From Somniosus microcephalus (lineage: Eukaryota), in contig CM126215.1 in the NCBI GenBank assembly GCA_052327205.1, forward strand, positions 20,584,001 through 20,648,000: 64,000 bases of DNA, read 5' to 3'. Shown here piece after piece: positions 3,697 to 48,915 of the stretch. Under the pieces are notes generated by a model. It searched no databases. It was not told where the DNA came from and was given only the letters and a program-made list of their open reading frames with translations. A program made the position numbers and the translations under genes. Numbering within the stretch: the stretch's first letter is position 1; each line of letters opens with the position of its first letter.

Positions 3697-5495
3697 AAAA
3701 TCAAGGAAAACCCAAAGGTGTTTTATAAAGAGCAAGAGGATTACTAAGGAAAGAGTAAGGCCTATTAGAGACCAAAAAGGTAACCAGTGTGTGGAGGCGG
3801 AAGATGTGGGTATGGTTCTTAATGAATACTTTGCTCATTGTGTCTGTCTTCACAGAAGAGAGGGACGATGCAGACATTGTAGTTAAGGAGGAGGAATGTG
3901 AAATATTAGATAAGATAAACATAGTGAGAGGGAACATTAAGGGGTTTAGCATCTTTGAAAGTAGATAAATCGCCAGGCCCGGATGAATTGTATCCCAGGC
4001 TGTTGAGCAAAGCAAGGGGCAAAATAGCGGAGACTCTGGCCATCATTTTCCAATCCTCTCTGGCTACAGGTGCGGTGCTGAAGGACTGGAGAACTGCTAA
4101 CATTGTACTGTTCAAAAAGGGCGAAAGGGATAGACCAAGTAATTATAGGCCAGTCAGCCTAACCTTGGTGGGCAAATTATTGGAAAAAATTCTGAGGGAC
4201 TGTAATCGTTATTTAGAAAGGCACAAATTAATCAAGGACAGTCAGCATGGATTTTTTAAGGGAAGGTCGTGTCTGACTAACTTGATTTTTTTTTGAGGAG
4301 GGTTGATGAGGGTAGTGCATTTGATGTAGTCTATATGGATTTTAGCAAGGCTTTTGACAAGGTCCCACATGGCAGACTGGTCAGAAAAGTAAAAGCCCAT
4401 GGGATCCAAGGGAAAGTGGCAAGTTGGATCCAAAATTGGCTCAGTGGCAGGAAGCAAAGGGTAATGGTCGATGGGTGTTTTTGTGACTGGAAAGCTGTTT
4501 CCAGTGGGGTTCCGCAGGTCTCGGTACTGGTCCCTTGCTTTTTGTGGAATATATCAATGATTTTAGACTTCAAAGTAGGGGGCATGATTAAGAAGTTTGC
4601 AGATGATACAAAAATTGGCCGTGTGGTTGATGGTGAGGAAGGTAGCTGTAGACTGCAGGAAGATATCAATGGACTGGTCAGGTGGGCAGAAAAGTGGCAA
4701 ATGGAATTCAATCTGGAGATGTGTGAGGTAATGCATTTGGGGAGGGCTAACAAGGCAAGGGAATACACAATAAATGGTAGAATACTGAAGTGTAGAGGAA
4801 CAGAGACACCTTGGAGTTCATGTCCACAGATCCCTGAAGGTAACAGGACAGGTAGATAAGGTGGTTAAGAAGGCATATGGGATACTTTCCTTTATTAGCT
4901 GAGGCACAGATAATAAGAGCAGGGAGTTTATGCTAAAACTGTATAAAACACTAGTAAGGCCACAGCTAGAGCACTGCGTACAGTTCTGGTCAGCACATTA
5001 CAGGAAAGATGTGATTGCATTAGAGAGGGTACAGAGGAGATTTATGAGGATGTTGCCAGGACTGGAGAATTCTAGCTGAGGAAAGATTCTATATGCTGGG
5101 GTTGTTTTCTTTGGAGCAGAGGAGACTGAGGGGACACTTGATTGAGGTATATAAAATTATGAGGGGCCTAGATAGAGTGGATAGGAAGGACCTATTTCCC
5201 TTAGCAGAGCGGTCAATAACCAGGGCCATAGTTTTAAAGTAATTGGTAGAAGGATTAGAGGGGAGTTGGAGAACATGGTGGGTGTCTGGAACTCACTGCC
5301 TGAAAAGGTGGTAGAGACAGAAACCCTCATCACATTTAAAAAGTACTTGACTATGCAGTTGAAGTGCCGTAACCTACAAGGCTACGGACCAAGAGCAGGA
5401 AAGTGGGATTAGGCCGGGTGGCTCTTTTTTGGCCGGCACAGACACGATGGGCCGAATGGCCTCCTTCTGTGCCGTAAATGTCTGATTCTATGATT
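3697..5495 (+). mobile_element. 5'-truncated CR1 LINE with frameshifted RT
   Basis: ORFs 3955..4296 and 4293..4859 carry KSPGPD, NYRPVSLT, QHGF, DFSKAFDKVPH, GVPQ and FADDTK; ends in a ttctatgat-type tail. Confidence 0.92.
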
Positions 5496-5744
5496 TGCTG
5501 ACTAATGTGGGATTCAACAGGCTTTGGCCAAATTAAGTCAACGGACCAGGATTGGCAAATGGATTTTAATATGCGTTCTACTTAATTTGATCCACCTAGT
5601 TTAAAATATTTTCTTTAAACCATGGTGATTTCTATTTTCAAATAGTGTCAAATTTTGTTTGATAACGCTCCTGTGAAGCACCTTGGGATGTTTTACTATG
5701 TTAAATGTGATCTATAAATGCAGATTGTTGCATTGCTAAATAAT

Positions 5745-13769: not shown

Positions 13770-14005
13770 TGTGGTGTATGTAACCTGTTCCACCTTAAGA
13801 GAACTACTTTAAGAGATGTACTACTTTCTCTTGGCTGCTGTATACTGTAATACCGGTGGTGACCACACCGGTATATAAACGTTGTGTAGTGATTTGCTGG
13901 GCAGTTCAGCCCTGACCTCCGAATAGTAAAGACCTGTTAAAGTTATTCTTGTTGTCTGTGTCCAGTGATTTATAATAAGCATAACTGGGACACACACACT
14001 CAACA
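13770..14005 (+). repeat. 5' LTR of Gypsy A
   Basis: TGTGGTGTATG...CAACA; direct repeat of 23237-23472; TATA-like tatataa at ~13872. Confidence 0.95.
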
Positions 14006-14743
14006 GTGGCGACGAGTCCGATCTTACCCTGCGGCAGTTTTACATCCAAGGCAGCTTCGTCCTCAGAACGGGCGTCGAGAAGAGGCATCCGCCCTCATCA
14101 TCCTGCTGAGCACCACATCGCATGGGAGGCATCGAGAACCCGGGTTAAAAAGAAAAATTCTGAACACGAAGCCCTCCATCAGCGACAGGCAGTGATCATC
14201 CCTTCTACCACGGTGGTGGGTAAGCCGATCAGCGACACGAGCAGAAAGTCGGCCGCGTTGGCTGTGGAGTAGGGGAGGGAAAACGGAGGAAAAAGGGCGG
14301 AGAACTCGACCGCGGCCGGTGAAAAGGGCCGGGCTGCAATCGGGGCTGAGAGGCGCAGCGACTGGGGCAGCGTTAAGGCCACGAGAACCGTGGAGAACTC
14401 AACCGCAGCCGGTGTAAAGGACCGGCCTGCAAGCGGGGCTGAGAGGCGCAACAGCAGGGGAAGCGTGAATGCCCATGGGAACCGCGGGGGAGCAAAAAGC
14501 AGCGTCGGGGAATTGAGAACCGCTGGGGAGGCGAGAACGGCAGCAGCACGGCAATCGCCATTGCAGCCAGCGGGGGGGAAGAAGGCAAACGCGGGAAGCC
14601 ACCATTGTAGTCGGCGGGGGAAGAAGACGAGCGCGGGAAAAACCGCCAAGCGCGGGAAGCCGCCATTTTAGTAGGCGGGGGAAGAAGACAAGCGCGGGAG
14701 GCCGCCATTTTGGGAAAAAGAAAATTTAAAGAAACTTGCAAGG

Positions 14744-16291
14744 ATGCCTAAACATGATAACATCAATGCTTTTGATAGCGATGTCGAAGATTGGGCCACG
14801 TATGTAGAACGCATGGAAGTTTATTGTAAAGCAAATGAGGTACCAGATGATAAGAAAGCACTAACCTTATTAAACTCAATGGGTGCGAAGACGTACGGGC
14901 TATTGAAGCACCTTGTATCACCAGATAAACCGGCGGATCAGACTTTCGCGAATATTGTTACTGTCCTGAAAAATCATTTAAACCCCACGCCGCTGCTGAT
15001 AGCGGAACGATTTAAATTTTACAGAAGAACGCAGCTGAAAGAAGAAAGCAACGCTGAATTCTTAATTGAACTGCGTAAGCTATCAAAGTACTGTCAGTTT
15101 GGAACAGGACTAGCAGATGCGCTGAGAGATAAACTTGTGTGTGGATTGTTAAAAGAAGGAACACAAAAGCGACTGCTAGAGGAGAATCCTCTATTGCAGC
15201 ATCGCACGAAGCCGCAGCGAGAGGCACTGCGGAAATGCAGCTAAGGTCATCGGAACTCGGCACCAATCAAATGGCCTTGGGTGCAGTAAAGTGTTATCGT
15301 TGTGGAAAGACAACGCACGATCAGAACCAGTGCTGGTTCAAAAATCAGGAATGCAGAAAATGTGGCAGGCTTGGTCACATAGCTAAAGTATGCTGGTCAG
15401 GAAAGAAGACCAGCAACAAAAAGTCACCGCAGGAAAAGTGCAGAAAGGTACACAAGGTGACAGAGAACAGTTCGGATGAACAGAAGTCAGATTCAGACTC
15501 CAGCAGTAAGGAACTGGGTTGTCTAAGAGTACACAATGTGGGTAATGAAGCAGACCTCCAAACTATCTGGGTCACACTTCAGATAGCAGGAGTCCAAGTG
15601 AAGATGGAATTGGACACTGGATCGGCATGGACGGTCATGAATAAGCAAGATTACAAAAGGTTATTCCCACATATTCCCCTACGGGATACGGAGATTGTAT
15701 TGAAAACATACACGGGGCAAAGAGTATACCCCATCGGAAAGATAAAGGTAAAGGTGGTCCACAAGGGCAAAGAAAGCCGAGGAATGGACTTATATGTGCT
15801 ACCTGAGGGAGGTCCACCACTACTGGGACAGGAGTGGATCAGGAGAATAAATATGGACTGGCATTCCTTAAAAGCACTAACGGTAGATTCCGGTGAAAAA
15901 GATGTCAAACCTAAACGATTGTCCAGAATATTGGACGATGCTAAAGAGGTGTTCCAACAGGGACTGGGAACACTGAGAGGAATTACGGCAACCATCAAGG
16001 TTGAAGAACATGCAAACCTGAAATTTTTCAAAGCCAGACCGGTACCTTATGCGATACGACCTGCTGTGGAAGCTGAGCTGGAAGGGCTAGAACGTTCAGG
16101 AGTACTGTCAAAGGTGGACTGGAGTGAATGGGCCACGCTCATTGTTCCCGTCATGAAGCGTTCATCGAGCAACAAGCCGGGGGAACCGGGGAAGGTTCGC
16201 ATTTGTGGAGATTTCAAGATCACTGTTAATCCGGTGCTTCACACGGTGCAATATCCGCTTCCGCGGATTGAGGATATCTTCGCTTCATTGT
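14744..16291 (+). pseudogene. Gypsy A gag (two CCHC knuckles), aspartic protease and RT N-terminus; frameshifted
   Basis: ORFs 14744..15244 and 15139..16296 carry CYRCGKTTHDQNQC, CRKCGRLGHIAKVC, LDTGS, RICGDF and YPLPRIEDIFASL. A ~20-nt deletion near 15187 relative to element B shifts the frame. Confidence 0.92.
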
Positions 16292-17555
16292 TGTAGTGTA
16301 TGTAACCGTCCACCTTTAAGAGAACTATTTTAGGTGTTGCACTACTTTATCTTGGCTGCTGTATACTGTAATACCGGGAGTGACCACACTGGTATATAAG
16401 TGCTGTGTAAGGATTTATTGGGCAGATTCGCCCTGACCTTCGAATAGTAAAGTCCTGTTAAAGTTACTCTTGTAGTCTGTGCATTAATTCACCATATAAC
16501 CCACAGACTTTACAGTGGCGACGAGTTCGATCTTACCCTGCGGCAGCGATACATCCGAAGCAGTTAACGAGCGTCGAGAAGAGGCACCCGCCCTCGTCGT
16601 TCTGCTGAGAGAAGACTCGAGTCTGCAGAGCAAGGAAGAAGGAAGGATTCAGACACGAAGCCTTCCATCAGCAACAGGCTGTTATTGTCCCTTCTGCCAC
16701 GGCGGTGAGTGAGCCGATCAGCCACGAGAAGCAAGTCGGCCACGTTGACTGTGAGTAGGGGGAAAATAAAAAGAAACGGAGGATAAGGGCGGTGAACTCG
16801 ACCACGGTCGGGGGAAAGGAGCCGGACAGAAGTCGGGCCCAGAGGCGCTGAGACTGGGGCAGCGTAGGGCACGGAAGCCGCGGTACAAGCGGGAACGCAG
16901 CCGGTGTGAGAGACCGGGCTACAAGCGGGAATGCAGCCGGTGTGAGAGACCGGGCTACAAGCGGGCTGGGAGACGCCACAGCGTCGTGAGACAGCTAGAC
17001 CGCGACCGGCGAAAAAGGCCGGGCAGCTACCGAGGCCACGAGGCGCTGCGACCGGGATCGTAAGGCGCGGGAAGATATAAAAATAAATAAAACCGCGGAG
17101 AACTCGGCCGCAGCCGGGGGAGGAAAGGACCGGACTGCGAGAGGGCTGGGAGGTGCGATTGGAAGCCGCTGAGGGAGAGACGGGGCCCGAGTGAAGGGGG
17201 AACGGGACCGAGCGAGGGAGACCGAGCGAGATTCCGCCCAGCGGCTGGAACTGTTCGCCGCCAACGGGTTGTCCTCCGCGCCGGTTGCCGGCCGAGAAAA
17301 GGGAACAAGGAACGCACTGAAGCCGGCGCGCAGGCTGCGAACTCCGAAAGCCAGCGGTCGTCGCCCGAAGGAAAGCTTACCCCTCCCGCCAGGGGAAGAA
17401 ACGCGGGAAGCCGCCAGTAGGCGGGGAAGAAGACAGAAGCGGGAAACCGCCATTTTGAAAGTGGGCGGGGAAGAAGACAAGCGCGGGAAACCGCCATTTT
17501 TGGAAAAAAAAAGTAACGAACAAATTCGTTGTGGTTTCTCAAAAAGATAGTGAAG

Positions 17556-20027
17556 ATGCCTAAGCATGGTAACATCAACAACTTCGATTCCGAGGTGGAA
17601 GATTGGGCCATGTACGTAGAACGCATCGAGATATATTGTGAGGCCAATAAAATAGCAGATGATGATGATAAAGCTCTCACCTTATTAAACGCAATGGGGG
17701 CGAAGACATACGGGCTATTGAAGGATCTTCTATCACCAGCTAAACCGGCGGATCAGACTTTCGCTGATATTGTTGCTGCCCTGAAGGATCATTTGAACCC
17801 CACACTGCTGATGTTGGCGGAACGATTCAAATTTTATGCGAGAACGCAACGGAAAGAGGAAAGCAACGCGGAATACTTGGTCGAACTGCGTAGACTAGCG
17901 AAATACTGCCAGTTTGGGGAAAATCTGACAGAGGCATGGAGAGACAAGTTCGTGTGCGGGTTGTCGAAGGAAGGAACACAAAAGCGACTGCTCGAAGAGA
18001 ACGATCTTACACTTGGCAAGGCTGTCCTTATTGCAGCATCACACGAAGCAGCCGCGAGAGGCACTGCGGAAATGCAGCTGAAGGCAGCGGTACTCAGCGT
18101 GGATCAAATGACTTCGGGTACAACAAAATGTTATCGTTGTGGGAAGACAACACACGACCAGAACCAATGCTGGTTTAAAAACCAGGAATGTAGAAAATGT
18201 GGCAAGCTTGGTCACATAGCTAAAGTATGCCGGTCAGGAAAGAAGACCAACAACAGAAAAAAGTCACCGCAGGAAAAGTACAGCAAGGTACACAAGGTGG
18301 CTGAGAAGAGTTCAGATGAACAGAATTCGGATTCAGACCCGAACGGCCAGGAACTGGGTAGTCTGAGAATTCACAATGCGAGTAAGGAAGCTGACCTACA
18401 AACTATCTGGGTCACACTAAAAGTAGCCGGAGTCCAAGTGAAAATGGAATTGGACACAGGATCAGCCCTATCAGTCATAAATCGAAGGGATTACAACCGG
18501 CTATTCTCACATATACCCTTGAGAGATACCAAGATCGTATTGCAGACATACACGGGGCATAAAGTATACCCCATGGGAAAGATACAAGTCAAGGTGAGAG
18601 ACAGGGGCAAAGAACACCAAGGAATGGACTTATATGTACTACCTGAGGGAGGTCCACCACTTCTGGGACGGGAGTGGATCAGGGAGATAAACATGGAATG
18701 GCACTACCTAAAAGCAATAACGAGTGAGAACTCGGTGAAGACAATCAGCTCACACTCTGGAACGGATGATGACAAGACCAGCCCAAGTGCGAAAGACAAG
18801 TCTAAAATGGACTTGCTGACTAAGGTTGGAAAAACGAAGGAGTGCATAAATACTAATGCTTCAAAGGAGAACAAAGTTTCAGAACAGAATTCCACTGAAC
18901 AACAACAACATAGTTTGGCAGAGAATTCTGAGTCTGTCCAGTTTACAGACATGCACAAGTCTGAGGAACACCGGGCTCGAACTCGACTCCATTTCAAATT
19001 ACAACAGCAATTAGAACAATTGAGTTGCCGTCTCGAGCAAGAGATAAAAGCAATGAAAACGTTCTTTGACACAGAGTGGGAGAATCTGGAAAGACAACAG
19101 GAACAGCTGAGGGAGAAAAGGGAGCAGGAGTACACAAACCGTCTGCGCAAGGAGGTCAAACGAATCAAAGCTGATTCGGTTTCTGAAGGTGCGGGCTCTA
19201 ATCTGGTGGAGCAAGATGTTCAGCAACTGAAGGCGCTTGTTAGCAGATTGCAGGCAGAAAAGGCTGAGTTGGTCGCCATGAATTCCGAGCTCCTACTGAA
19301 GTTGGGTGCAGCATCACCGGACGATTCATTTGTGGAAATTCGAATGGTGGAGGCTGCGGATGATGGCGAAGTAGAAACAGCAAAGGAGCCCCAGGGCAAG
19401 GTTATAAACAGCCCTGCAGCTACTGGGAAACGGATGAGGTCAGAAGAGTCAATGGTCAGCCAACTCCTTCATATGCTGAGGGACAAGACTCTGAAATGGA
19501 AACAATTTGGACATGAGTCTAAATCTTCAAAGGAGAGGGGTTGGGAGCTCCCAAAAGTTATTGGAATAGCTGAGGTTGCAACACAGACTGAGAAGATGGC
19601 AGCAGAGCAAACCTTGGATGCCAAAAGTACGCTGATTCACGTCAATGTTGAACAACAGAATGCTGAAACAGCTGCTCCAGTAGAGGGATTGAATAATACA
19701 ATCAATCAATCTCCCAATGAAGTTGAAGTATTGAAATCACGAATGAGGTCAGTAGTAAAAGACTTGCAGGAAGCCCAGAAAAAGCTGGATGAAACTGAAC
19801 GCATGAAGAAGTCTCTTCAGGAAAGATGTCTGGATTTGGAACAAAAGCTGGCTAACGTCCAGCTGGGTATGGAGGAAATAGAAGACCCTCTCGCTGGCCT
19901 AGCTCAGGACGACACCGAATATTACCATGACCTGTTGGACGACACCGAATATTACGATGACCTGCTCTGCCCAGCTTGTGATAAACTCCCAAAGTGCAGA
20001 AACCATGAAGAATCACCTAAAGTCTAA
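17556..20027 (+). CDS. Chimeric ORF (~823 aa): Gag (2x CCHC), aspartic protease, unassigned linker, STK10/SLK coiled coil, optineurin segment with LIR, DNAJC21 zinc-finger start
   Basis: Uninterrupted ORF from ATG 17556 (MPKHGNINN, homologous to A's MPKHDNINA). LDTGS at 18450-18464. Homology to A ends ~18722, after which come FFDTEWENLERQQ, RLQAEKAEL...DSFVEIRM and YDDLLCPACDK. Confidence 0.9.
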   Translation: MPKHGNINNFDSEVEDWAMYVERIEIYCEANKIADDDDKALTLLNAMGAKTYGLLKDLLSPAKPADQTFADIVAALKDHLNPTLLMLAERFKFYARTQRKEESNAEYLVELRRLAKYCQFGENLTEAWRDKFVCGLSKEGTQKRLLEENDLTLGKAVLIAASHEAAARGTAEMQLKAAVLSVDQMTSGTTKCYRCGKTTHDQNQCWFKNQECRKCGKLGHIAKVCRSGKKTNNRKKSPQEKYSKVHKVAEKSSDEQNSDSDPNGQELGSLRIHNASKEADLQTIWVTLKVAGVQVKMELDTGSALSVINRRDYNRLFSHIPLRDTKIVLQTYTGHKVYPMGKIQVKVRDRGKEHQGMDLYVLPEGGPPLLGREWIREINMEWHYLKAITSENSVKTISSHSGTDDDKTSPSAKDKSKMDLLTKVGKTKECINTNASKENKVSEQNSTEQQQHSLAENSESVQFTDMHKSEEHRARTRLHFKLQQQLEQLSCRLEQEIKAMKTFFDTEWENLERQQEQLREKREQEYTNRLRKEVKRIKADSVSEGAGSNLVEQDVQQLKALVSRLQAEKAELVAMNSELLLKLGAASPDDSFVEIRMVEAADDGEVETAKEPQGKVINSPAATGKRMRSEESMVSQLLHMLRDKTLKWKQFGHESKSSKERGWELPKVIGIAEVATQTEKMAAEQTLDAKSTLIHVNVEQQNAETAAPVEGLNNTINQSPNEVEVLKSRMRSVVKDLQEAQKKLDETERMKKSLQERCLDLEQKLANVQLGMEEIEDPLAGLAQDDTEYYHDLLDDTEYYDDLLCPACDKLPKCRNHEESPKV

Positions 20028-20373
20028 GGAACATCGGGAGATGGTGGCGCTACTACGGAAAAAGGAGGACGAGAAGGAGGAACGGCGCATGCAGCTGGCA
20101 GCTGACCGTGGAGCCCAGAGAGTCTCCAAGAAGCAGAAAAGGAAAAGACGAAGCAGAAGATGATGACCATCTGAACCATTATCACCTCTACCAGGTCACG
20201 CACGTGGTCTCTCCGTATGGAGCCAAATCAGTTTGGAAGTAGAAAAACTTCCCAAGGTACTCAAGCTTTTAAAAGTCAACAATGCTGGTTCAGAAGTGAC
20301 GGAAGTTCAAGCTGTTAAGTCCAGTGAAGGACTATTGGATGAGTCACTCCAGCAACATGAACCGACTACACCA

Positions 20374-20483
20374 AGACTGAATCTGTGAACTGTTTTCCGC
20401 AGAGACTGAATCTGTGAACTGTTTCCCGCAGAGACTGAATCTGTGAACTGTTTCCGCAGAGACTACATCTGTGAACTGTTTTT
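20374..20483 (+). repeat. ~29-bp tandem repeat (about 3.8 copies) of the pol stop-codon region
   Basis: Unit agactgaatctgtgaactgttttccgcag starts at 20374, 20403, 20432 and 20460; element A has a single copy at ~23146. Confidence 0.9.
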
Positions 20484-20772
20484 ACATGAAGTTGGATATA
20501 TGTTATGTTTAATGGGGAATAAGTATGTTGTAAGCTAAAAAGGGAGGATTGTAGTGTATGTAACCGTCCACCTTTAAGAGAACTGTTTTAGGTGTTGCAC
20601 TACTTTATCTTGGCTGCTGTATACTGTAATACCGGGAGTGACCACACCGGTATATAAGTGCTGTGTAAGGATTTATTGGGCAGATTCGCCCTGACCTTCG
20701 AATAGTAAAGTCCTGTTAAAGTTACTCTTGTAGTCTGTGCATTAATTCACCATATAACCCACAGACTTTACA

Positions 20773-23160
20773 GTTGTCTGGCGGGAAACACTTCACCAAG
20801 ATAGACCTGGCGCAGGCGTACTTACAGATGGAAGTTGAGGAAGAGTCACGCCAGTATCTCACGATTAACACGCATAGAGGCTTGTATCGGTATAATACTG
20901 GTTTTTGGAGTGGCATCGGCTCCAGCAATTTGGCAGAGGGCCATGGAGCAGGTATTACAGGGAATTCCAGGCACACAATGTTACCTGGACGATATTCTGA
21001 TTACAGGAGATGATGATGAGGAACATCTTGCAAATTTGGAACTGGTGCTCACCAGATTGAAAGAATATGGACTTCGAGTTAACCGCCAGAAATGTGAGTT
21101 CTTTCAGAAGCGGATCTCGTACTGTGGTCAAGTCATTGACCAGGAGGGGCTTCATAAGTCTCCTGACAAGATCGAAGCTGTTGTGAAGGCTCCCGCTCCG
21201 GATAATGTATCCCAGTTGAGGTCGTTCCTAGGGTTGATTAACTATTACCATAAGTTTCTGCCAAATTTATCCACGGTGCTGCACCCGCTGAACGCTCTTT
21301 TGCAGAAGGGAGTACCATGGAAGTGGAGCGAGGACTGTAAGAGGGCCTTTCGCAAAAGCAAGGCATTGATCACCTCCGAGGAAGTGTTGGCTCACTTCAA
21401 CCCAACGCTGCCTATTCGTTTGGCTTGTGATGCTTCTCCATATGGTATTGGGGCAGTACTCTCACACAAGTTGCCAAATGGCCTGGAGAGGCCAGTCGCA
21501 TTCGCATCCAGATCATTGACCTCCGCTGAGCGCAACTATGCTCAGATAGATAGGGAGGCTCTCAGCCTTGTGTGGGGAGTAAAGAAGTTTAATCATTACC
21601 TGCAGGGCCAAAAGTTTACGCTACTGATAGACCACCAGCCGTCGGTATCCATTTTTAACCCTAAGAAGGGTGTTTCGGTGATGACAGCACAGAGGCTCCA
21701 GAGATGGTCCCTTTTCCTAGGGGCACATCAATATCAGATCAAATTCAAAGGTACAAAGCAGCATGGTAATGCTGATGGGCTGTCGCGCCTGCCACTACCT
21801 ACAGAGGAGGAGGCACCGACGGTTGACCCTGTTGAGTTATTTCACTCGACCATCATCGAATGTTTACCAGTCACCAATGCAAGTATTGAAAGAGAAACCA
21901 GGAACGACCCGACACTGTCCCGGGTCTACGAATTGACAGCGAAGGGATGGCCAGCACATGGTGATCCACTGTTACCGGCATTCTCAGCAAGACGAGAACA
22001 GCTGTCCGTCTGTCAAGGAACATTGATGTATGGAACAAGGGTGATTATTCCTCCTAAGTTAAGAGAGAGAGTTCTAAAGGAACTGCATGAAGGTCATCTG
22101 GGGGGAGTCAAGATGAAAAGCCTTGCTAGGGCTTATGTGTGGTGGCCGGGCATCGACCAACAGATAGAGGATCTGACGAAAAGCTGCTCAGGGTGCCAAA
22201 AAGTTCAAAATGCACCTCCGATTGCACCGCTGCATCCATGGGAATGGCGTTCAACCCCATGGCAACGTGTACATATTGACTTTGCTGGTCCATTCATGGA
22301 CTCCATGTTTTTAATTGCGGTGGACGCACATTCTAAATGGCCAGAAGTGATTAAGATGACTACCACTACCTCGGAAAAGACGATCGCGGTGCTAAGAACG
22401 ATATTCGCAAGAAATGGATTGCCAGAACAAATATGTTCAGACAACGGACCGCAGTTCGTGTCAGAAGAATTCCAGAAATTCATGAAGAATGGGGTGAAAC
22501 ATTATACCTCTGCCCCATATCATCCGGCTACAAACGGGTTGGCCGAGAGATTTGTACAAACGTGCAAAAAAGCAATAAAGGCCATGAGCGAAGATCAGAT
22601 TCCACTACAACACAAGGTGGACAATTTCCTACTGGCATATCGAAACGCCACTCATGCAGTGACAAACCAAAGTCCTGCCATGATGTTCTATAACAGGAGG
22701 TTGCGGTCCAGGTTGGACTTGTTAAAACCAAATGTGCGGAGGGAAGTCGAAAACAAACAGTTCCAGCATATAAATAACAAGACCACTCGGAGTTTCGAAA
22801 TAGGACAACCAGTGTTAGCCCGGGACTATAAAAATGAGAAATGGCAATCTGGAACAATTCGGGCCAGACAAGGACCCCTGATGTACAGGGTAGATATTGG
22901 TGAAAATGTAATACGACGTCATGCTGACCAACTGGTAGAATCAAGAACAAGGGCCGAACCCATGGTTACGGCAGAGACAACCGTGGAAGAAGTTAGTGAA
23001 CCTGAAGCATCTACCTCAGAAGTGAATGTACCTGATGATGATGATGTCCAATCCATAAGAGATCAACTAGATGAGTCACCCCAGCAACGAGAATCAGAGA
23101 CCCCCTGAAAGGCGTTATCCAACTCGGATCAGGAGGCCTCCTCAGAGACTGAATCTTTGA
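20773..23160 (+). pseudogene. Gypsy A pol remainder: RT, RNase H, integrase
   Basis: ORFs 20774..21013 and 20835..23108 carry IDLAQAYLQ, YLDD, CDASPYGIGAVL, HHCC (HEGH...CSGC) and DDE (HIDF, SDNGPQF, NGLAER). Frameshifts near 20896 and 23103; native end RLNL* at ~23160. Confidence 0.93.
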
Positions 23161-23236
23161 ACTGTTTTGCATGAAGTTGTATATATATATGTTATGTTAA
23201 ATGGGGATATACACTGTTAAGCTAAAAAGGGAGGAT

Positions 23237-23472
23237 TGTGGTGTATGTAACCTGTTCCACCTTAGGAGAACTACCTTAAGAGATGTACTACTTTCTCTTG
23301 GCTGCTGTATACTGTAATACCGGTGGTGACCACACCGGTATATAAACGTTGTGTAGTGATTTGCTGGGCAGTTCAGCCCTAACCTCTGAATAGTAAAGAC
23401 ATGTTAAAGTTATTCTTGTTGTCTGTGTCCAGTGATTTATAATAAGCATAACTGGGACACACAGACTCAACA
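23237..23472 (+). repeat. 3' LTR of Gypsy A
   Basis: Follows the PPT; direct repeat of 13770-14005. Confidence 0.95.
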
Positions 23473-25359
23473 GAGGTGTATGTCCTTGTGTTATTTCTCA
23501 TGCTTCTGTTGCTTGCCTTCGCTCTCCTGAATCAACTAATTTGAATCAGTCAGCTTAAAATTTCAATTATTGTAGGAAACCTGTAACTTCATTACAGGCC
23601 TGAGCTAATAATACGAAGGGTGATCACAGCTTCAATAATTCGGAGGGTGCTTTTCCAGCATCACTTCAGCAACAAGATTTGGTCTTTTGTGACATGATTG
23701 GCTTAGTAATCATGCTTGCTGTATAGAGTGGTAATGCGGGTGCATTTCTTGTTATTTTGATTGGAAACGTAACGCGATTTTTTTTACATGGTTCCATTCA
23801 TATTTATCTCTGAGGAGGAGCTTGTTTAAAACTTTTGAGTCTCGTCCTTGAAAGATGGGCAGCACCTCCTCTGACTCTTCAGATTCTGGGAGGTATGCCC
23901 TCTATTTTCCTCCAAAATCTAACCGTAATTTTCATAACTCTTGTAATCGTTTCAATATTTAATTGTCTTGGAAATCATTGGTAACTTTCTACATGCATTA
24001 TCATTTACTGTGGACGAAGTAAATTAAGTCGTTCTTTCTCTTGTGGAAAGACTTGCTGCAATAACCTCTTCAACTGGTGCACTGCCCAAAGTTAATTAAC
24101 AAAAGGCAAGGTTTCCATTCCTGATGGTTGTCCAGTGACAATTGCTGGAAGCACATGTTGGCTGAGTATAGGATAATCTTGCGATTTGATTAATCTGCCA
24201 GTACTCACTGTATTGGGGCACACTTGGAATGGTCAGTTGGGCAAGCAACTAGTGTCATAATTCCACAGATGATTCTTCACATCCAAGTCAACATTAAAGA
24301 CTAGTCATTATTTTGAAGGATAAGGAAGGAGAAGTTTACAATGATACAATTGAAGCTTCTTCAAATACCAAGGATCTGAGGTTCACTCCTATTGTGCTGA
24401 GAGGAATTTGTACCTTTTTTGGGACAGGGACCTCGCCAGGACTATCGCTGGATTTTGTCATACAAGTCAGTGAGTCCTGTTTTTTTTTAAAAAAAAGAAA
24501 CAAACCAATCACAGGTTGAAGATCAATTGTCCACTTTTAGGCCATTTAGCAAGTTTATGAAACTGTGGCCTGGTTTTACCCATATTATGTAGTTTGGCTG
24601 GGTGAGGTTGGTGTTTACGAAGTAGTCTTTGTTTCACACCAGTCAAAAGTTAGAAACTTTACTCCCCACAGCTCCAGGGCGTTGCCAAGCAGATCTCAAT
24701 TCTCCACTGCTTGCCAACATCCGGGTATTGTGGATTGCATGCCTTATCTTGTACAGTATGATCTTTATGGGGAGACACTACTAAGTTCTAAAGCTCAGCA
24801 GATAGTCTTTAAATTGACCTGCAGGTGCATTTGGGAAAAGCTTTACTTTTGAACTGTATTCAGTGTGAAACGGAAACAGCATTTTACAGAAATTCATGTA
24901 TTGGTCTACTTTTGTATTAATTTAAAAATGTATTGGTGAATTGTCTCAAAGCAATTTGAAATACAAGAAATTATCTCTTGAGTTTCATACGAATAATTTT
25001 GGTCAGATGCTTGTCTATTTCCTCCATGGTTTCTGGCTGTTGGATTTAAAGCACGCTGCCTCTTGACTTTCTTTTGTGAAGTTCTTACACATTCAATCAC
25101 TGGATAGAAACAGGCCATTCTGCCTATCGAATCTAATCACGTGTAGTGTTTTTACCTTTTTGGCTTCTGCTTTCATTGTTACATTCATATAGAAAGTGTA
25201 TCTGTTTGTGCTGGCTGAAACATAATTATTTTTCACCCACGAAAATGTTGCTCACTTTTTTCTATTGTGTGTAGCTATAAAATGCAGTATGAGCTGTCCT
25301 CACTGAACTATGCAGTAGTATCCGAAAACAACACTTGTGGTGTCATGATTGAACATATT

Positions 25360-27148: not shown

Positions 27149-29050
27149 CATAGAAACATAGAAGATAGGAGTAGGCCATTCGGCCCCTCGAGCCTGCTCT
27201 GCCATTCAATGTGATCATGGCTGATCATCCAAATTCAGTACCCGGTCCCTGCTTTCTCCCCATACCCCTTGATCCCTTTAGCCTTGAGAAATATATCCAA
27301 CTCCTTCTTGAATATATTTAATGAATTGGCCTCTACTGCCTTCTGTGGTGGAGAATTCCACAGGTTCACCACTCTCTGGGTGAAGAAATTCCTCCTCATT
27401 TCTGTCCTAAATGGCTTACCCCTTATCCTTAGACTGTGACCCCTGGTTCAGGACTCCCCGACCATCGGGAACATTCTTCCTGCATCTAGTCTGTCCAGTC
27501 CTGTCAGAATTTTATAAGTTTCAATGAGATCCCCTCTCATTCTTCTAAACTCCAGTGAGTACAAGCCCAATCGACCCAATCTCTCCTCATACGTCATTCC
27601 TGCCATCCCAGGTATCAGCCTGGTGAATCTTCGCTGAACTCCTTCCATGGCAAGAACGTCCTTCCTCAGATAAGGTGACCAAAACTGCACACAATACTCA
27701 AGATGTGGTCTCACCAAGGCCCTGTACAACTGCAGCAAGACATCCTTGTTCCTGTACTCCAACCCTCTCACTACGAAGGCCAACATACCATTTGCCTTCT
27801 TAACCGCCTGCTGCACCTGCATGCTTACCTTCAGCGACTGGTGCACAAGGACATCCAGGTCTCGTTGCACTTCCCCTTCTCCCAATCTATTGCCATTTAG
27901 ATAATCTGCCTTCCTGTTTTTGCTACCAAAGTGGATAACCTCACATTTATCCACGTTATATTGCATCTGCCATGCTTCTGCCCAATCACCCAACCTGTCC
28001 AAATCATCCTGGAGTTTCTCGGCATCCTCCTCCCAGCACACACGCCCACCCAGCTTTGTGTCGTCTGCAAATTTGGAGATATTATATCTAGTTTCCTTGT
28101 CTAGATCATTAATATATATTGTGAATAGTGGTGGTCCAAGGACCGATCCCTGCGGTACCCCACTAGTCACTGCCTGCCACTTGGAAAAAGACCCGTTTAT
28201 TCCAACTCTTTGCTTTCTGTCTGCCAACCAGTTCTCTATCCAAGTCAGTACCTTGCCCCCAATCCCATGTGCCTTAACTTTACACGCTAATTTCTTATGC
28301 GGGACCTTATCGAAAGCCTTCTGAAAGTCCAAATACACCACATCCACTGGTTCTCCCTTATCTATTTTACCAGTTACATCCTCAAAAAATTCCAGTAGAT
28401 TAGTCAAGCACGATTTACCCTTTGTAAATCCATGTTGACTTTGCCCGATCCTGTCACTGTTTTCCAAGTGCTCCGCTATTACATCTTTTATGATGGACTC
28501 TAGCATTTTCCCCACTACCGATGTCAGGCTTACCGGTCTGTAATTCCCCGTTTTCTCTCTACCACCTTTTTTGAATAGTGGGGTAACATTAGCTACCTTC
28601 CAATCCATGGGTACTGTTCCAGATTCCATCGAATGTTGGAAGATGATCAGCAATGCATCTACTATTTCTAGGGCCACTTCCTTAAGTACCCTAGCATGTA
28701 GATTATCAGGCCCTGGGGATTTATCGGCCTTCAATCCCGTCAACTTCCCCAACACCATTTCCCTACAAATACTGATTTCTTTCAGTTCCTCCCCCTCATT
28801 AGTCCCTATGTTCCCCGACATCTCTGGGAGGTTATTTGTGTCCTCCTTTGTGAAGACAGAACCAAAATATGTATTTAATTGGTCTGCCATTTCTTTGTTC
28901 CCCCATTATAAATTCCCCTGATTCTGACTGCAAGGGACCTACGCTTGACTTCACCAATCTTTTTCTCTTCACATATCTATAAAAGCTTTTACAATCAGTT
29001 TTTATGTTCCCTGCAAGCTTACACTCATATTCTATTTTCCCCTTCTTAAT
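27149..29050 (-). mobile_element. Young 5'-truncated CR1 LINE
   Basis: 480-aa minus ORF plus 3' UTR and catagaaacatagaa tail. Confidence 0.95.
27448..28890 (-). pseudogene. CR1 ORF2 reverse transcriptase domain (5'-truncated)
   Basis: NYRPVSLTS, QHGF, DFQKAFDKVPH, GVPQGSVLGP, FADDTKL, RPHLEYCVQFWSP. Confidence 0.93.
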
Positions 29051-29511: not shown

Positions 29512-30945
29512 AACCACTTATCAGCCCAAGCCTGAATGTCATCCAGGTCTTGCTGCATTTGGGCATGGACTGCTTCATTATTTGTGGAGTTGTGAATGGA
29601 ACTGAACACTGTGCAATCATCAGCGAACAGCCCCATTTCCACCTTTTATGTTGGAGGGAAGGTCATTGATGAAGAAGCAGCTGAAAATGGTTGGGCCTAG
29701 GACACTGCCCTGAGGAACTCCTGCAGTGATGTCCTGCGGCTGAGATGATTGACCTCCAACAACCAGAGCCATCTGCCTTTTGTGCTAGGTATGACTCCAG
29801 CCAGTGGAGTGGTTTCCCCCCCCCCCCCCCAATTCCCATTGACTTCAGTTTTACTAGGGCTCCTTGATGCCACAATCGGTCAAATGCTTCCTTGATGTCC
29901 AGGGTGATGACTCTCGCCTCACCCCTGGAATTCAGCTCTTTTGTCCATGTTTGGACCAAGGCTGTAATGAGGTTTGGAGCTGAGTGGTCCTGGCGGAACC
30001 CAAACTGGGCATCAGTGAGCAGGTTATTGGTGAGTAAGTGCTGCTTGATAGCACTGTCGATGACACCTTGTATCACTTTGCTGCTGATTGAGAGTAGACT
30101 GATGAGGCAGTAATTGGCTGGATTGGATTTATTCTGCTTTTTGTGGACAGGATATACTTGGGCAATTTTCCACATTGTCGGATAGATGCCAGTGTTGTCG
30201 CTGTACTGGAACAGCTTGGCTAGAGGCACGGCTAGTTCTGAGCACAAGTCTTCATCGTGACAACCGGGATGTTGTCTGGGCCCACAGCCTCTGCTGTATC
30301 CAGTGCGCTCAGCTGTTTCTTGATAACCTGTGGTGTGAATCGAATTGGCTGAAGACTGGCTTCTGTGATGGTGGGGCCCTCGGGTTGAGGCCGATATGGA
30401 TCATCCACTTGGCACGTCTGGCTGAAGATGGTTGCAAACACTTCAGCCTTGTCTTTTGCACTCGCGTGCTGCGCTTCGCCATCATTAAGGATGGGGATAT
30501 TCATGGAGCCTCCTCTTCCCGTTAATTGTTTAATTGTCCACCATCATTTACGACTGGATGTGACAGGACTGCAGCGCTTTGATCTGATCCGTTGGTTGTG
30601 GGATCGCTTAGCTCTGTCTATAGCATGTTACTTCCGCTGTTTAGCATGCATGTCATCCTCTGTTGCAGCTTCACCAGGTTGGCACCTCATTTTTAGGTAT
30701 GCCTGGTGCTGCTCCTGGCATGCTGTTCTACACTCACTCAACCAAGACAGGGTTGGTCTCCTGGCTTGATAGTAATGGTAGTGAGGGGTATGCCGGGCCA
30801 GGAGGTTACAGATTGTGGTGGAATACAATTTTGCTGCTGCTGATGGCCCACAGCGCCTCCTGGATGCCCAATTTGGAGCTGCTAGATCTGTTCTGAATCG
30901 ATCCCATTAGTACCACACAACATGATGGAGGGTGTCCTCAGTGAC
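29512..30945 (-). mobile_element. Second CR1/L2-group LINE family, RT region fragment
   Basis: ORFs 29663..30247 (QFGFRQDHS, LDIKEAFDRLWH) and 30232..30504; frameshifted. Confidence 0.88.
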
Positions 30946-35078: not shown

Positions 35079-36184
35079 AATCATTTATGGGATCTGGGCA
35101 TCACTGGCAAGGCCAGCATTTATTGCCCATCCCTAGTTGCCCTTGAGAAGCTGGTGGTGAGCTGCCTTCTTGAACCACTGCAGTCCGTGTGGTGATGGTA
35201 CTCCCACAGTGCTGTTAGGTAGGGAGTTCCAGGATTTTGACCCAGCGACGATGAAGGATTGGCGATATACTTCTAAGTCAGATGGCGTGTGACTTGGAGG
35301 GGAACTTGGAGGTGGTGGTGATCCCCTGCGCCTGCTGCCCTTGTCCTTCTAGGTGGAAGAGGTCGCGGGTTTGGGGGGAGGTGCTGCCGAAGAAGCCTTG
35401 GCGAGTTGCTGCAGTGCATCTTGTAGATGGTACACACTGCAGCCACGGTACGCCGGTGGTGGAGGGAGTGAATGTCTAAGGTGGTGGATGGGGTGCCAAT
35501 CAAGCGGGCTGCTTTGTCCTGGATGGTGTCGAGCTTCTTGTGTTGTTGGAGCTGCACTCATCCAGGTAAGTGGAGAGTATTCCATCACACTCCTTACTTG
35601 TGCCTTGTAGATGGTGGAAAGGCTTTGGGGAGTCAGGAGGTGAGACACTCGCCGCAGAATACCTAGCCTCTGACCTGCTCTTGTTGCCACAGTATTTATG
35701 TAGCTGGTCCAGTTAAGTTTCTGGTCAATGGTGATCCCCCAGGATGTTGATGGTGGGGGATTCGGTGATGGTAATGCCGTTGAATGTCAAGGGGAGGTGG
35801 TTAGACTCTCGCTTGTTGGAGATAGTCATTGCCTGGCACTTCTGTGGCGTGAATGTTACCTGCCACTTATCAGCCCAAGCCTGAACGTCGTCTAGATCTT
35901 GTTGCATATGGGCATGGACTGCTTCATTATCTGAGGAGTTGTGAATGGCGCTGAACACTGTGCAGTCATCAGCGAACATCCCCATTTCTGACCTTATGTT
36001 GGAGGGAAAGTCATTGATGAAGCAGCTGAAGATGGTTGGGCCTAGGACAGTGCCCTGAGGAACTCCTGCAGCGATGTCCTGGGGCTGTGATGATTGACCT
36101 TCAACCACCACAACCATCTTCCTTTGTGCTAGGTATGACTCCAGCCAGTGGAGCATTTTCCCCCCGATTCCCATTGACTTCAGT
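35079..36184 (-). mobile_element. Second CR1/L2-group LINE, 5'-truncated, inserted into a + strand CR1 fragment
   Basis: ORFs 35725..36174 (GVPQGTVLGP, FADDCT), 35349..35690 and 35273..35557; the CR1 sequence at ~35040-35066 resumes at ~36185. Confidence 0.88.
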
Positions 36185-39045: not shown

Positions 39046-39348
39046 ATAGTGTTAGATCCGTGATTCTTAAAATAGGATGTTTTCCAATAACTACACGGAT
39101 GCTGTAATTTAACAATCAACAGGTGTTTACTGGAGTAGGGTAGTCTCAAGACTGGGAGTACAGAGGCATGCTCAAGGCTTATATATAAGTGTGGTCACTG
39201 CCGGTACTACAGTATACAGGAGCTGTAAAAGTAGTTCTCTCTTAAAAGGTACATACACTACAATTCCCCCCCTTTTAGATTAGCAGTACCCATAATATGC
39301 AAATAACAATTAACACTTTAACATGCACATTAAACAGAAATAGTCCAT

Positions 39349-40536
39349 TTATAGATTCAGTCTTTGGGGCGGCTTCCTGATCCTTTCTGGATAGCGCCTT
39401 TCCTGAGGTTCTTGTTCTTGGTGCGGAGGCGATTCTGGCCCCCTTTCATCGGTTTCCACTGCTACTGTTTCTGAGGTAGATGCTACCGATATGTCGGGTT
39501 CATCCCCAGGTACGCGACACATGGGGTTGACTCGTTCCTGTGACGCTAAGATCTGGTCGACGTGGCGTCTCACAATGTTCTCCCCGACATCCACTGTGTA
39601 CATTAATGGCCCCTGCCGTGTGCATATCGTTTCGGGTTGCCATTTCTCTGTTTGGTAGTCACGGGCCAAGACTGGTTGTCCTACATTGAAGCTCCTTGTC
39701 GGCTTCTCATTGATGTGCTGGAATTGTTTATCCTCAACATTTCTTCGCACATTTGGTCTGAGCAAATCCAGACGAGATCTCAACCTTCGGTTAAAGAACA
39801 TCATGGCCAGGGTCTGGTTGGTAACTGCATGTGTCGCATTTCTGTAGGCTAACAGGAAATTGTCCACCTTATGCTGTAGTGGAATTTCATCATCGCACAT
39901 GGCCTTTATCGCCTTTTTTAAAGGTTTGTACGAACCTCTCAGCCAATCCATTTGTGGCTGGATGATACGGGGCGGATGTGTAATGCCTTACCCCATTCCT
40001 TCTCATAAATTTCCGAAACTCTTCGGACACAAACTGTGGTCCATTATCAGAGCAAATCTGCTCTGGCAAGCCGTTCCTGGCAAATATGGTCCGTAGGACT
40101 GCAATCGTTTTCTCTGTAGTGGTTGAGGACATTTTTATCACCTCAGGCCATTTCGAGTGCGCATCCACTGCTATTAAGAACATTGAGTCCATGAATGGAC
40201 CAGCAAAATCAATATGCACCCGTTGCCATGGAGAGGAGGGCCAATCCCATGGGTGTAGAGGGGCATGTGGTGGTGCATTTTGGACTTTCTGGCATCCTGA
40301 GCAGCTCTTGGTTAGGTCCTCGATTTGTTGATCAATCCCCGGCCACCACACAAGCCCTAGCAAGGCTTTTAATTTTCACCCCTCCCAGATGACCTTCGTG
40401 AAGCTCATTTAGCACTCTCTCCCTTAACTTCAGTGGAATTACCACTCGGGATCCACACATCACTGTCCCCTGGCATACTGACAGCTGTTCTCTTCTGGAT
40501 GAGAATGCTGGCAACAGTGAGTCGCCATGTGTTGGC
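39349..40536 (-). pseudogene. Gypsy C integrase, frameshifted
   Basis: ORFs 40332..40658 (ELHEGHLGG), 39890..40363 (HIDFAGP, SDNGPQF) and 39349..39951 (ends RKPPQRLNL). Confidence 0.92.
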
Positions 40537-43500
40537 TGTAATGATATCAGCAAATAAAGATGGTATTTGCCTGTTCGATTATGATGCCTTACCAGCATGA
40601 TTGCATGTATTGATTGCTTGTGCCTGACCAGCAGAGGGTATGTGACCGAGACAAGCAAGGCAGTTGAGTTTAGTTTCAGTTTCGTTCTAGCTGCATCACG
40701 AGCAGGATGTCTCCTGTAAATGCTGTATAAAGAGTTGAACAGACTTTAGATTAAAAGACATTCTCTTTCATAAATGTCTCGTCATTGAACCCACAAAGAA
40801 ATCAATACATGGTGTCAGAAGTGATTGAAAGAGATGAAGAGGAAAAATCTGAAGTTAAATCAGCTCTCCACAGATTAGCAAGCCAAAAGAGAACATCGTT
40901 ACTTACCATTAGAGAATAGCTAACGAAGTGAAAAATGGAAGGTTTACTCCCACCGGCGACGCTTCAGTTGACAGGTAATGTGGCTGAAAATTGGAGGAGA
41001 TTCAAACAACGTGTAGAGTTGTATTTAGCGGCAATCGGAGCTGACGAGAAAAGTGATGATAAGAAATCGTCAGTGTTCTTCCATGTTGTGGGTGATGAAG
41101 CGCTGGAGGTGTATAATAATTTCACATTCGCTGCTGATGGAGACAAAATGAAGCTAGATAAAATAATGGAACAGTTTGAGGCCTACTGCATACCTTAACG
41201 TGACGTTTGAGAGGCACAGATTTTTCACGTGTACAGAAAACGGGTGAGACTATTGATCAGTATGTGACTGAACTGAGAAACCGAAGCAAATCGTGTGAAT
41301 TTGGGGGACTGACAGACTCGCTGATAAAAGACAGACTGGTGTGTGGTATTCCAGATAATGGTCTAAGGGAAAGACTGCTAAGAAAGCAAAATCTAGACCT
41401 GGGAAAAGCCATAGCACTGTGTAGGGCTACAGAGACTGTGAAGTTGCAGGCAAAGGAGCTGTTCAGTGACAATAGCTGCAACGTGGATGCAGTGAGAAAG
41501 AACGGACACAAACAGTTTAACAAAAAGCGCCAATGTGAAAAAAGAGGCATGGCCAGCGAACGAAAATGAAAGGGGCAATCGAAAGTCATGTAGTCAATGC
41601 GGTACACAGCATCCACCAAGAAAGTGCCCAGCATATGGTAAAACATGCAATAGTTGCAACAAGAACAACCATTATGCCCGTTGCTGTAAGAACCAAGCGC
41701 AACAAAGCAAGGTCCATACAGTAGATGAAAGCGAGATAGAGGAGTTCAATGTAGATGTTGTGTCTGAAAACAAAAAAGAAGAAAGTGACTGGATGTTGAC
41801 ACTAAAAGTGAATGACATACACATTCCATTTAAATTGGATACTGGAGCACAAGTTAATGTGATATCAGAGACTGATTTTAAGAAAATTAGACCCAGACCA
41901 AAGATACATGGAATAAAAGTGAAAGTGACAGGATACTCAGGTACTGATATACCAGTGAAAGGAAGATGCATTGTCAAAGTAACACACAAGGACAGAGAGC
42001 ACACGCTAGCATTAATCGTGGTACCAAAGGATGTGCAAGCCATACTAGGTTTAAAAGCCTGTGAGACACTGAACCTGGTAAAGAGAGTCCTCGTTGTGGA
42101 AAGCGAAGGAGAGACAGTCTATGATGAACTCATGAAAGAGTACAACGACCTATTTAAGGGTCTAGGCTGCATTCTAGGAGAACACACGATCAGAGTAGAT
42201 AAAAGTATGACACCGGTCATACATCCATGCAGAAAAGTCCCGTTTGCTCTTCAAAAGCAACTGCAGGCAGAGTTGGACAGGATGGAAAGCCTGAACGTGA
42301 TTCGGAAGATAGATGAGCCAACTGAGTGGGTGAGTTCCCTCGTCGTAGTGGACAAAAAGAATGGAAAGCTCGGAATTTGCCTGGATCCAAGAAATCTAAA
42401 CAGAGCAACAAAGAGAGAGCACTTCAAGCTTCCTACACGTGAGGAAATCATGGCACAGTTTGCAAATGCAAAGTATTTCAGCAAGTTAGATGCATCATCA
42501 GGATTTTGGCAGATGAAATTGGACGAAGCAAGTTCAAGACTGCACGTTCAACAGTCCATTTGGCAGATACAGATTCCTAAGGTTACCATTTGGCATTGCC
42601 TCAGCTCCTGAAGTGTATCACAAAACTATCCATATGATCTATGAGCACCTGGAGGGAGTTGATACATCAATGGATGACATCATAGTATGGGGAACCACGA
42701 GAACTGAGCATGACGAGAGACTGAAAAAAGTGCTGGAAGCAACAAGGAAAACAAACCTGAAGCTGAATAGAGAGAAATGCCAGCTCGGGGTGACAGAACT
42801 GACATTCGTGGGAGATATCCTTAGCAGTGAGGGCATCAGACCAGATCCCAGAAAGGTGTCCGCCATTGAGAATATGCCAAAGCCACAATGCAAAAAGGAC
42901 GTGCAGAGGTTTAATGGAATGATCAACTACATGGGTAAATTCATATCCAACCTCTCAGAAAAGATGGCGCCACTGAGACGACTAACTGAAAAGAACATAG
43001 AATGGGAATGGAATCATGAGCATGAGAAGTCATGGAGCGATCTAAAGAAACTGCTCACAGAGGAACCAGTTCTGAGGTTTTATGACCCAGCGAGACCCAT
43101 CAAGATATCATCAGATGCATCACAGAGTGGGCTCGGTGCCGTTCTTCTGCAACAATATGACTGACTACTGGCAACCTATTGCATATGCATCGCACTCAAT
43201 GACAGACGCGGAGACGCGATATGCTCAAATAGAAAAGGAGCTGCTCAGCATCACATACGCCTGTGAAAGATTTCACCAGTTTGTGGCAGGACAAGCAATC
43301 AGTGTAGAGACTGACCATAAGCCCTTGATTGCATTGTTCCAAAAGCCACTAAATAGCTGTCCGCTTAGAATACAAAGAATGATGATCAGGCTGCAACGCT
43401 ATACACTGAATGTTGCGTACACACCGGGTAAACTGATGTATACAGCAGACACGTTGTCCAGAGCTGTTGACCCAAGTGAGCCCGCAAACACCAAGATGGA

Positions 43501-48059: not shown

Positions 48060-48915
48060 CCCTGGGTGTGATTTAACTGTCTAAAATGGCGTCTCCCGCG
48101 CTCTCCCTTCTTCTCCGCTGGCACAAAATGGCGTCTCCCGCGCTCTCCTTTCTTCCCGTGCTCGCCCTTCTCCGCTGCGGCTTCTAAAAATGGCGTCTCC
48201 CGCGCTCTCCCTTCTCCCCACGGACGCGGTTCAGCCGTTGAGCCCTGGCTGTGCTCTGCGCGTTCTCCTGTGCGCCTTTCCCGTTGCCGTCGCTCGGTCC
48301 TGAACCCGGCTGCTGCTTTACTCTGTCTCTGTCTCTGTCTCTGTTTTTCCTCAACGCCGCTCGGTTTTCAACCCCCGGCTGCGCCCTGTGCGCTTCACCC
48401 TCTCTCTTACCCCGTCGACGCTGCTCGGCTTTTTCTATGCCGTCGGTCGGCTCCAGCCGTTGCTGTCCGGGAAGGGTCTGCGCTGTACCTGTTGCCAGTC
48501 TGTTGCTGGATCGTCGTGGCTGGGGAACCAAGCTCGGCTCTCAACAGCCTCCCCTGCGATGTTTACTCTCTGCCAGATGACTGGGTGGTTGCTCGTGGTC
48601 GACGCCTGTGCTGCTGGCCTCGACTTTCTTCCACCGTCCTCCCGGAGTGAATCCTTGAAGGGAAATGCAGAGTTGCAGGCAGATTCGAATCGACCTCGTC
48701 GCCACTGTTAGATCCATGATTCTTAAAGTAGGATGTTTTCCAATAACTACACGGAGGCTGTAACTTAACAATCAACAGGTGTTTACTGGAGTAGGGTAGT
48801 CTCAAGACGGAGTACAGAGGGATGCTCAAGGCTTATATACAGGTGTGGTCACTGCCGGTACTACAGTATACAGGAGCTGTAAAAGTAGTTCTCTCTTCAA
48901 GGTACATACACTACA

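Follow-up and report, generated by a model that had tools for sequence, protein, structure and literature searches.

An optineurin segment as probable passenger cargo of an abundant, non-autonomous Ty3/gypsy-type LTR retrotransposon lineage in a shark genome

Acutely transforming retroviruses are defective, helper-dependent genomes that carry host coding sequence in frame to gag (gag-onc). LTR-mediated retrocopies, including maize Bs1, are described in the excerpts of Tan et al. (2016, PMC5131818) as partial spliced mRNAs that replace internal ORFs between LTRs, with short shared words at the switch points, several parent genes per element and often the parent's reading frame; they pass through more rounds as non-autonomous elements, and template switching is the known capture route. 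In its main text, as far as excerpted, the word 'circular' does not occur. Pseudogenes derived from circular RNA (circRNA), e.g., of mouse circRFWD2, show reversed exons at a back-splice join, have no poly(A) and are associated with LTR sequence; the excerpts of Dong et al. (2016, PMC4897178) give 33 high-confidence copies and call the mechanism mysterious.

An LTR retrotransposon family of the shark Somniosus microcephalus shares all these features of LTR retrocopies and circRNA pseudogenes. It differs from the cases excerpted from PMC5131818, where Bs1 has 1-5 copies, by its thousands of copies, its ladder of captures, an intact Gag under purifying selection and an open frame that is itself selected. 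Unlike the circRNA pseudogenes in the excerpts of PMC4897178, the shark capture of STK10 has preserved its entry and exit points in the Gag-Pol frame, comprises a whole turn, is translatable and has its join kept in 1,140 copies. Our searches of the open-access literature turned up no description of this family and none of a Gag frame that has taken up a circRNA. Multi-gene LTR capture (Bs1) and circRNA pseudogenes are already known, and the interest here lies in the capture of a circRNA, the scale and the separable layers of selection.

We analyzed a 64-kb stretch (the window; C14:20584001-20648000 of a 6.45-Gb assembly), to which all window coordinates refer. It contains a 4.5-kb non-autonomous Ty3/gypsy-type LTR element (element B, 16292-20772, plus strand) inserted in the reverse transcriptase (RT) of an older, full-type Ty3/gypsy element (element A). 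The 5' part of element A (13770-16291, plus strand) consists of its 5' LTR (13770-14009), a gag broken near 15200, protease and the start of RT; the remainder (20778-23476, plus strand) holds RT, RNase H, integrase and a 3' LTR (23237-23476) with 97% identity to its own 5' LTR. Element B has the hallmarks of an LTR retrotransposon, i.e., a TG...CA LTR pair (16292-16514 and 20550-20772, both plus strand; 99.1% identity), a target-site duplication (TSD; ATTGT at 16287-16291, plus strand, and GTTGT at 20773-20777, a 4/5 match), a primer-binding-like TGGCGACGAG just past the 5' LTR (16516-16525) and a polypurine tract (20537-20548). The latter lies in a segment with an integrase-tail remnant and short local repeats (20344-20549, plus strand). 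Five-bp TSDs were also found around sister copies, e.g., L047, L048, L070, L075 and L085.

The single ORF of element B (17556-20027, plus strand, 823 aa) begins with Gag and aspartic protease (17556-18721, plus strand; Pfam zf-CCHC and Asp_protease_2), including two zinc knuckles (18129-18170 and 18189-18230) and the protease motif LDTGSA (18450-18467), and continues into non-retroelement sequence. Gag-protease is 79% identical between the two elements. The CCHC-knuckle Gag, the aspartic protease and relatives in PR-RT-RH-IN order place element B in Ty3/gypsy, where it presumably resembles the clade Mag. No RT, RNase H or integrase was found between its LTRs, so the element is not autonomous. 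The family of element A has young members, with several open frames of 1,320-1,361 aa among 73 scored, and these are candidate helpers for element B. As in gag-onc retroviruses, host sequence is fused in frame to gag; in contrast to them, no env was seen in the family of element B, which is of Ty3/gypsy type and whose cargo amino acids are mostly neutral. The nearest relatives of the window proteins are from sharks, e.g., Pristiophorus and Heptranchias.

Other repeats were present in and around the window. In a second nest (39173-48650), another LTR element, whose LTRs (40537-40810 and 45037-45310) share 97% identity, interrupts a minus-strand relative of element A. Fragments of LINE-type reverse transcriptases, which we take to be CR1/L2-like, lie at 4281-4859, 27448-28905, 29663-30400 and 35725-36183. 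Outside the window, sister copy L053 adjoins a 445-aa ORF (L053:354-1688) that resembles a Harbinger-type transposase. The 64-kb window contained no tRNA and no Rfam family.

The initial annotation had placed a captured optineurin (OPTN) segment, fused to a Gag and spanning several OPTN exons without introns, at 19176-19885. OPTN sequence is indeed present, but starts at 19166. By host exon alignment and protein matches, 19166-19879 (plus strand) corresponds to six consecutive exons of the genome's own OPTN gene (C17, about 85.872-85.906 Mb), joined at the host splice sites without any intron sequence and with identities of 95.1, 91.7, 86.6, 80.6 (gapped), 92.4 and 92.9%. The segment matched shark optineurins best (69% identical, with 99% of the query covered, E 1e-78), and each of its 63 protein matches contained OPTN-type Pfam domains, which upholds the proposed identity. 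The piece is in frame behind Gag and protease as annotated, but it is not directly fused to them, as STK10 sequence (18722-19174) sits in between. A Gag-OPTN fusion was not found among database proteins, which counts for little as repeats are rarely annotated.

The LC3-interacting region (LIR) DDSFVEIRM (19320-19346, plus strand) is protein-identical to host OPTN. Its core FVEI conforms to [FWY]xx[LIV] and is preceded, as in the host, by acidic residues and an intact serine. A TQT motif, which we take to fit the LC8 anchor consensus, was read from the sequence at 19581-19589 (plus strand); both motifs are found where they had been annotated. What the cargo shares with host optineurin is the zipper, the LIR including its serine, and some of the coiled coil that comes next. 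In contrast, domain and protein comparison found neither the N-terminal NEMO/TBK1-binding part nor the C-terminal UBAN and zinc finger, a loss that had likewise been predicted. Since UBAN and zinc finger are absent, the cargo cannot act as a ubiquitin receptor, i.e., it is not a selective autophagy receptor of the OPTN type. We also noted that, in the assembled host OPTN (L043:4654-4793 and 5346-5539), one exon join is accompanied by two surplus single bases, and that the gene reads TPTAK instead of the TQTEK seen in other sharks and in almost every element copy; this is either a local assembly error or a broken allele. Moreover, loose read ends were abundant at window positions 19802, 19831 and 19935-19937 in RNA and contig runs, and suggest that there are further subfamilies which differ in sequence there.

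Between protease and OPTN, 18722-19174 (plus strand) contains part of the large STK10 exon, an in-frame deletion and the PKK coiled-coil exons (PF12474, E 6e-10), with 87-91% nucleotide identity to the host STK10 exons on C8. A remnant of upstream STK10 exons (20146-20343, plus strand; 91-95% nucleotide identity to the host) is located downstream of the later exons, and we read it as the trace of a back-spliced circle. The least changed sister copies (L053 and L059 were mapped) are 97-100% identical per exon to host STK10. Their STK10 sequence starts midway in the large exon, continues through three more exons, returns to the exon upstream and finishes within the large exon again, all in frame between the RT start and the integrase tail. 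This exon order was obtained from tblastn matches, and we speak of a 'back-splice' on the strength of the observed splice signals. In the window copy the join has been replaced by OPTN; it is kept at 1,140 places in the genome (control 0).

Very probably, then, to judge from these sequences, the lineage was founded when a back-spliced STK10 RNA was copied through one full turn. A permuted STK10 could also have come from trans-splicing, from exon repetition in a linear RNA or from rearrangement inside the element, with no circle involved. Such origins are improbable: the non-colinear join connects exactly the last base before a host GT donor with the base that directly follows an upstream AG acceptor, an identical 14-nt host word stands at entry and exit, which amounts to one full turn plus overlap, and each of the five exons is present once in 110 kb of the host locus, so that the join does not reflect a genomic exon duplication. 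It speaks for them that the host circle was not seen directly, as join-spanning reads are indistinguishable from element copies, and that our literature search found no publication naming a circular STK10 RNA. Both switch points between Gag-Pol and the back-spliced RNA are kept, at 98-99% identity to host exons, which points to template switching in LTR particles. A separate STK10 retrocopy was found on C3, where L046:4272-4946 is an intronless 97% match to the last 225 aa of STK10 and has no match to element B.

The third cargo, at about 19887-20145 (plus strand), is a zinc finger and basic stretch of DNAJC21, assigned by protein match to shark DNAJC21 (64% to the Carcharodon protein); in sister copies this piece contains zf-C2H2_jaz. 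The window copy has a private frameshift near 19982 and ends at a stop at 20027. The initial annotation mentioned neither this piece nor the STK10 sequence on both sides of OPTN. Of host DNAJC21, only the first four exons were located (C1:2.653-2.675 Mb), and no host exon for the captured part was found in the next 70 kb past exons 1-4 (L127-L133, C1:2.585-2.655 Mb); the exons after residue 147 are missing owing to either a long intron or an assembly gap. A search with PF21884 for the host gene led to a different locus on C17. Element B thus resembles LTR-mediated retrocopies in that intronless OPTN and STK10 exons, together with DNAJC21 as judged by protein only, replace internal ORFs. Shared words at the switch points are CAAAGCTGA (STK10/OPTN, the entry point of OPTN), ATGGAGGA (OPTN/STK10) and the STK10 entry/exit word, all taken as observed.

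Twenty loci from the PKK search and 20 from the optineurin search gave the order of captures. The STK10 turn was followed by the in-frame STK10 deletion and then by branches with either obscurin or OPTN. On the OPTN branch, OPTN replaced the back-splice join at CAAAGCTGA, a deletion occurred at ATGGAGGA, and DNAJC21 was added. In the sister branch (L047-L052, L055-L057, L062 and L065), Ig domains of obscurin lie, in frame, within the STK10 cargo. Divergence from the host climbs along this ladder from about 1% over 2-4% to 8-10% in element B. As LTR pairs were 96.5-100% identical in the 33 loci, out of 39, that contained both LTRs, cargo divergence most likely accrued through replication cycles. 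Five copies (L047, L055, L057, L064 and L082) have an insert of ~150 aa after the protease that starts with a CxxC motif (RCPTCNK); a source was not found (Atlas scores 0.75). Its occurrence alongside different cargos indicates recombination between subfamilies.

Allowing up to two mismatches, we counted 3,995 matches to the STK10|OPTN join and 8,281 to the OPTN|DNAJC21 join (control 0 for both). Copies with either the back-splice or the OPTN|DNAJC21 join together exceed 9,400, an estimated 40 Mb or so if full length. The family is transcribed, as seen at the RNA level. In two RNA runs (X7 and X8), which were chosen by species label and may stem from another species than the genome, 8,363 of 16.7 M and 6,344 of 14.4 M records fell on the internal region of element B, with RNA over 30/30 bins. 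First mates in X7 were mostly on the minus strand (173 vs 13 in the LIR bin), i.e., the RNA is sense given the usual stranded library; X8 had no clear strand. Most reads are 95-99% alike, and the signal is therefore that of the family, not of the window copy; host OPTN transcripts may contribute to the LIR bin. The element-only join of 19886 to 20146 was covered by 11 and 41 RNA reads. Contig runs of two other organism labels cover all bins, and since the family occurs in runs of three organism labels from four studies, it may predate a species split.

To analyze selection, we mapped the codons of natural copies onto copy L008. Of the 120 loci with OPTN, 117 entered the analysis after removal of one duplicate and two short loci, and they formed nine clusters of three or more. 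Copies were sampled by similarity or exact pattern match, not randomly, and several regions were tested, which makes all P values soft; branch counts are blurred by recombination between subfamilies. Purifying selection acts on Gag and on the open frame, but largely not on the amino acids of the cargo. On shared branches, dN/dS was 0.14-0.21 for Gag (P<1e-6), with a weaker constraint on the nucleocapsid (0.42-0.44); all Gag estimates taken together spanned 0.14-0.26. The protease, which according to the annotation could release the cargo, had 0.45 against the oldest copies and 1.2 since the DNAJC21 stage, and its DTG was intact in 85 of 86 copies. Private changes among 30 copies of element B were neutral (0.97), as were the cargo without the LIR exon (1.01-1.14, or 1.07 with a further lineage, E) and the whole OPTN piece (1.00), which has many changes in its middle coil.

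For the reading frame, no fixed stop occurred in any cluster compared with 6.6-7.7 expected (P 0.0013), 26 stops were found in single copies, and cluster-fixed indels upstream of the DNAJC21 finger were all multiples of three. The commonest C-terminus was Lys/Arg-rich in 12 of the 14 groups examined; of the remaining two, one (a single locus) has no basic tail and the other no end in the DNA covered. Three different sequences provide these basic tails, i.e., the integrase tail, its poly-Arg variant and the DNAJC21 basic stretch. The window copy lacks one because of its own frameshift.

The family can do without the LIR. Two in-frame, non-nested deletions of the LIR exon (19146-19427 and 19209-19438) were found in other lineages, which are sisters of each other and have a gag-protease about 74% identical to that of element B; the larger of these lineages is young (99% between two copies). 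Junction counts gave 4,273 and 1,744 copies with the deletion joins and 1,940 with LIR codons, so about three quarters of the classifiable copies (6,017 vs 1,940) do without it. Likewise, when OPTN|DNAJC21 matches were sampled in list order, 18 of 20 loci had no LIR exon; these were 20 of the first 21, and the skipped L099 keeps it. Together with the neutral OPTN piece, the two deletions and these counts give no support to the idea that the LIR is what the element needs.

In lineages that keep the LIR exon (zipper and LIR), it had six amino-acid changes compared with 18.1 expected (P 0.002) and seven synonymous changes compared with 7.6 expected (N:S vs the rest, Fisher 0.06). When we added lineage E, i.e., two sampled LIR-keeping copies with two residues changed just upstream of the core, there were 9 vs 20.3 expected changes (P 0.007), and, with unpolarised sites dropped, a dN/dS of 0.61 (N:S vs the rest, Fisher 0.26). 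The annotation had suggested checking whether LIR codons are more conserved than their flanks, and the outcome is mixed: the LIR exon does show a shortage of amino-acid changes, albeit a weak one, but no difference in N:S from the rest was found. A run of 28 unchanged codons over the LIR (permutation P 0.008) predates the addition of lineage E, and our earlier conclusion that the exon is selectively kept (P 0.001-0.02) was downgraded once the deletion lineages and lineage E had been sampled. The FVEI core is intact in 113 of 117 copies and TQT in 128 of 135, the latter being a very short motif for a selection test. A role of the LIR in the lineages that keep it is possible from the sequence comparison.

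We propose, with a probability of roughly 0.68, that the OPTN segment travels as passenger cargo in a highly successful LTR lineage, non-autonomous and of Ty3/gypsy type. This is supported by LTR structure and nesting, the host exon junctions, the stepwise sister series and junction counts without control matches, and also by the dN/dS values, the lack of fixed stops and out-of-frame indels, the LIR deletions, the open-frame relatives of element A, the basic tails and the family RNA; the shortage of amino-acid changes in the LIR exon counts against it, as a pure passenger should not show it. Host RNA has replaced RT, RNase H and integrase at short shared words, presumably by RT template switching inside particles. 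The first cargo was very probably the full back-spliced STK10 turn; OPTN mRNA, DNAJC21 and, on the other branch, obscurin came later, and in-frame deletions recurred. The element would make its own Gag, the long tail of which would be disposable, and rely on the young full-length family of element A for RT and integrase. Its frame may be kept open either because this shields the RNA from nonsense-mediated decay or because translation has to extend to the Lys/Arg-rich C-terminal tail.

It is unlikely, but would account for the shortage at normal synonymous change, that zipper and LIR are useful where kept, the window lineage included, by linking Gag particles to ATG8 membranes or to Rab8 traffic, or by acting as a decoy. 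Lineages with a different Gag would then no longer need the LIR, and both deletions do lie in a lineage with only about 74% gag-protease identity to element B. The FVEI core kept in 113 of 117 copies fits such a use, as does the overlap of the matched stretch with the solved OPTN fragments 9IKQ and 9M0O; the zipper is named a Rab8 platform in the excerpts of a review (PMC12651866). The 6,017 copies without LIR, the exon values of 0.61 and Fisher 0.26, the two residues changed just before the core in lineage E and the spread of obscurin-bearing and STK10-only branches without OPTN all speak against it. Less likely still is a LIR that is a liability, an LC3-binding tag that would send Gag particles to autophagy so that deleters out-replicate keepers. 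Autophagy restricts L1/Alu and Ty1 particles according to the excerpts of PMC4982230, and two independent non-nested deletions in sister lineages, both abundant and the larger one young, would agree with this. Yet a point mutation of the core would suffice and is fixed in no cluster, in-frame shortening at short shared words is common throughout the family, and the deleted lineages differ in Gag too, which confounds their success. We give hardly any credence to a domesticated host gene, i.e., a Gag-OPTN fusion kept for the shark. Its long ORF and the transcription of the family would be in line with it, but the locus is one among thousands of dispersed copies, has 99% LTRs, neutral private changes (0.97) and a frameshift of its own. 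A single fixed locus under purifying selection after insertion, as for a domesticated Gag, was not found, and we rejected this reading and also that of an assembly artefact.

For the biology of the family, the main interest of passenger capture lies in the circRNA and the scale rather than in the LIR. It concerns a route of circRNA copying into genomes that the excerpts of PMC4897178 leave open, and presents gene capture as a repeated process on a scale far above known cases. The many dated copies allow the selection acting on Gag to be told apart from that on the open frame and that on cargo residues, and the copy set can be used to address whether a retrotransposon gains or suffers from an LC3-binding tag. 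A wider reading, which we consider rather doubtful, is that a lineage of more than 9,000 copies arose from a circRNA turn, that its Gag tail is a platform for sampling exons, and that the LIR exon was selected on one Gag background and twice deleted on another. If true, it would be a natural experiment in which autophagy or Rab8 traffic shapes retrotransposon fitness in the vertebrate germ line.
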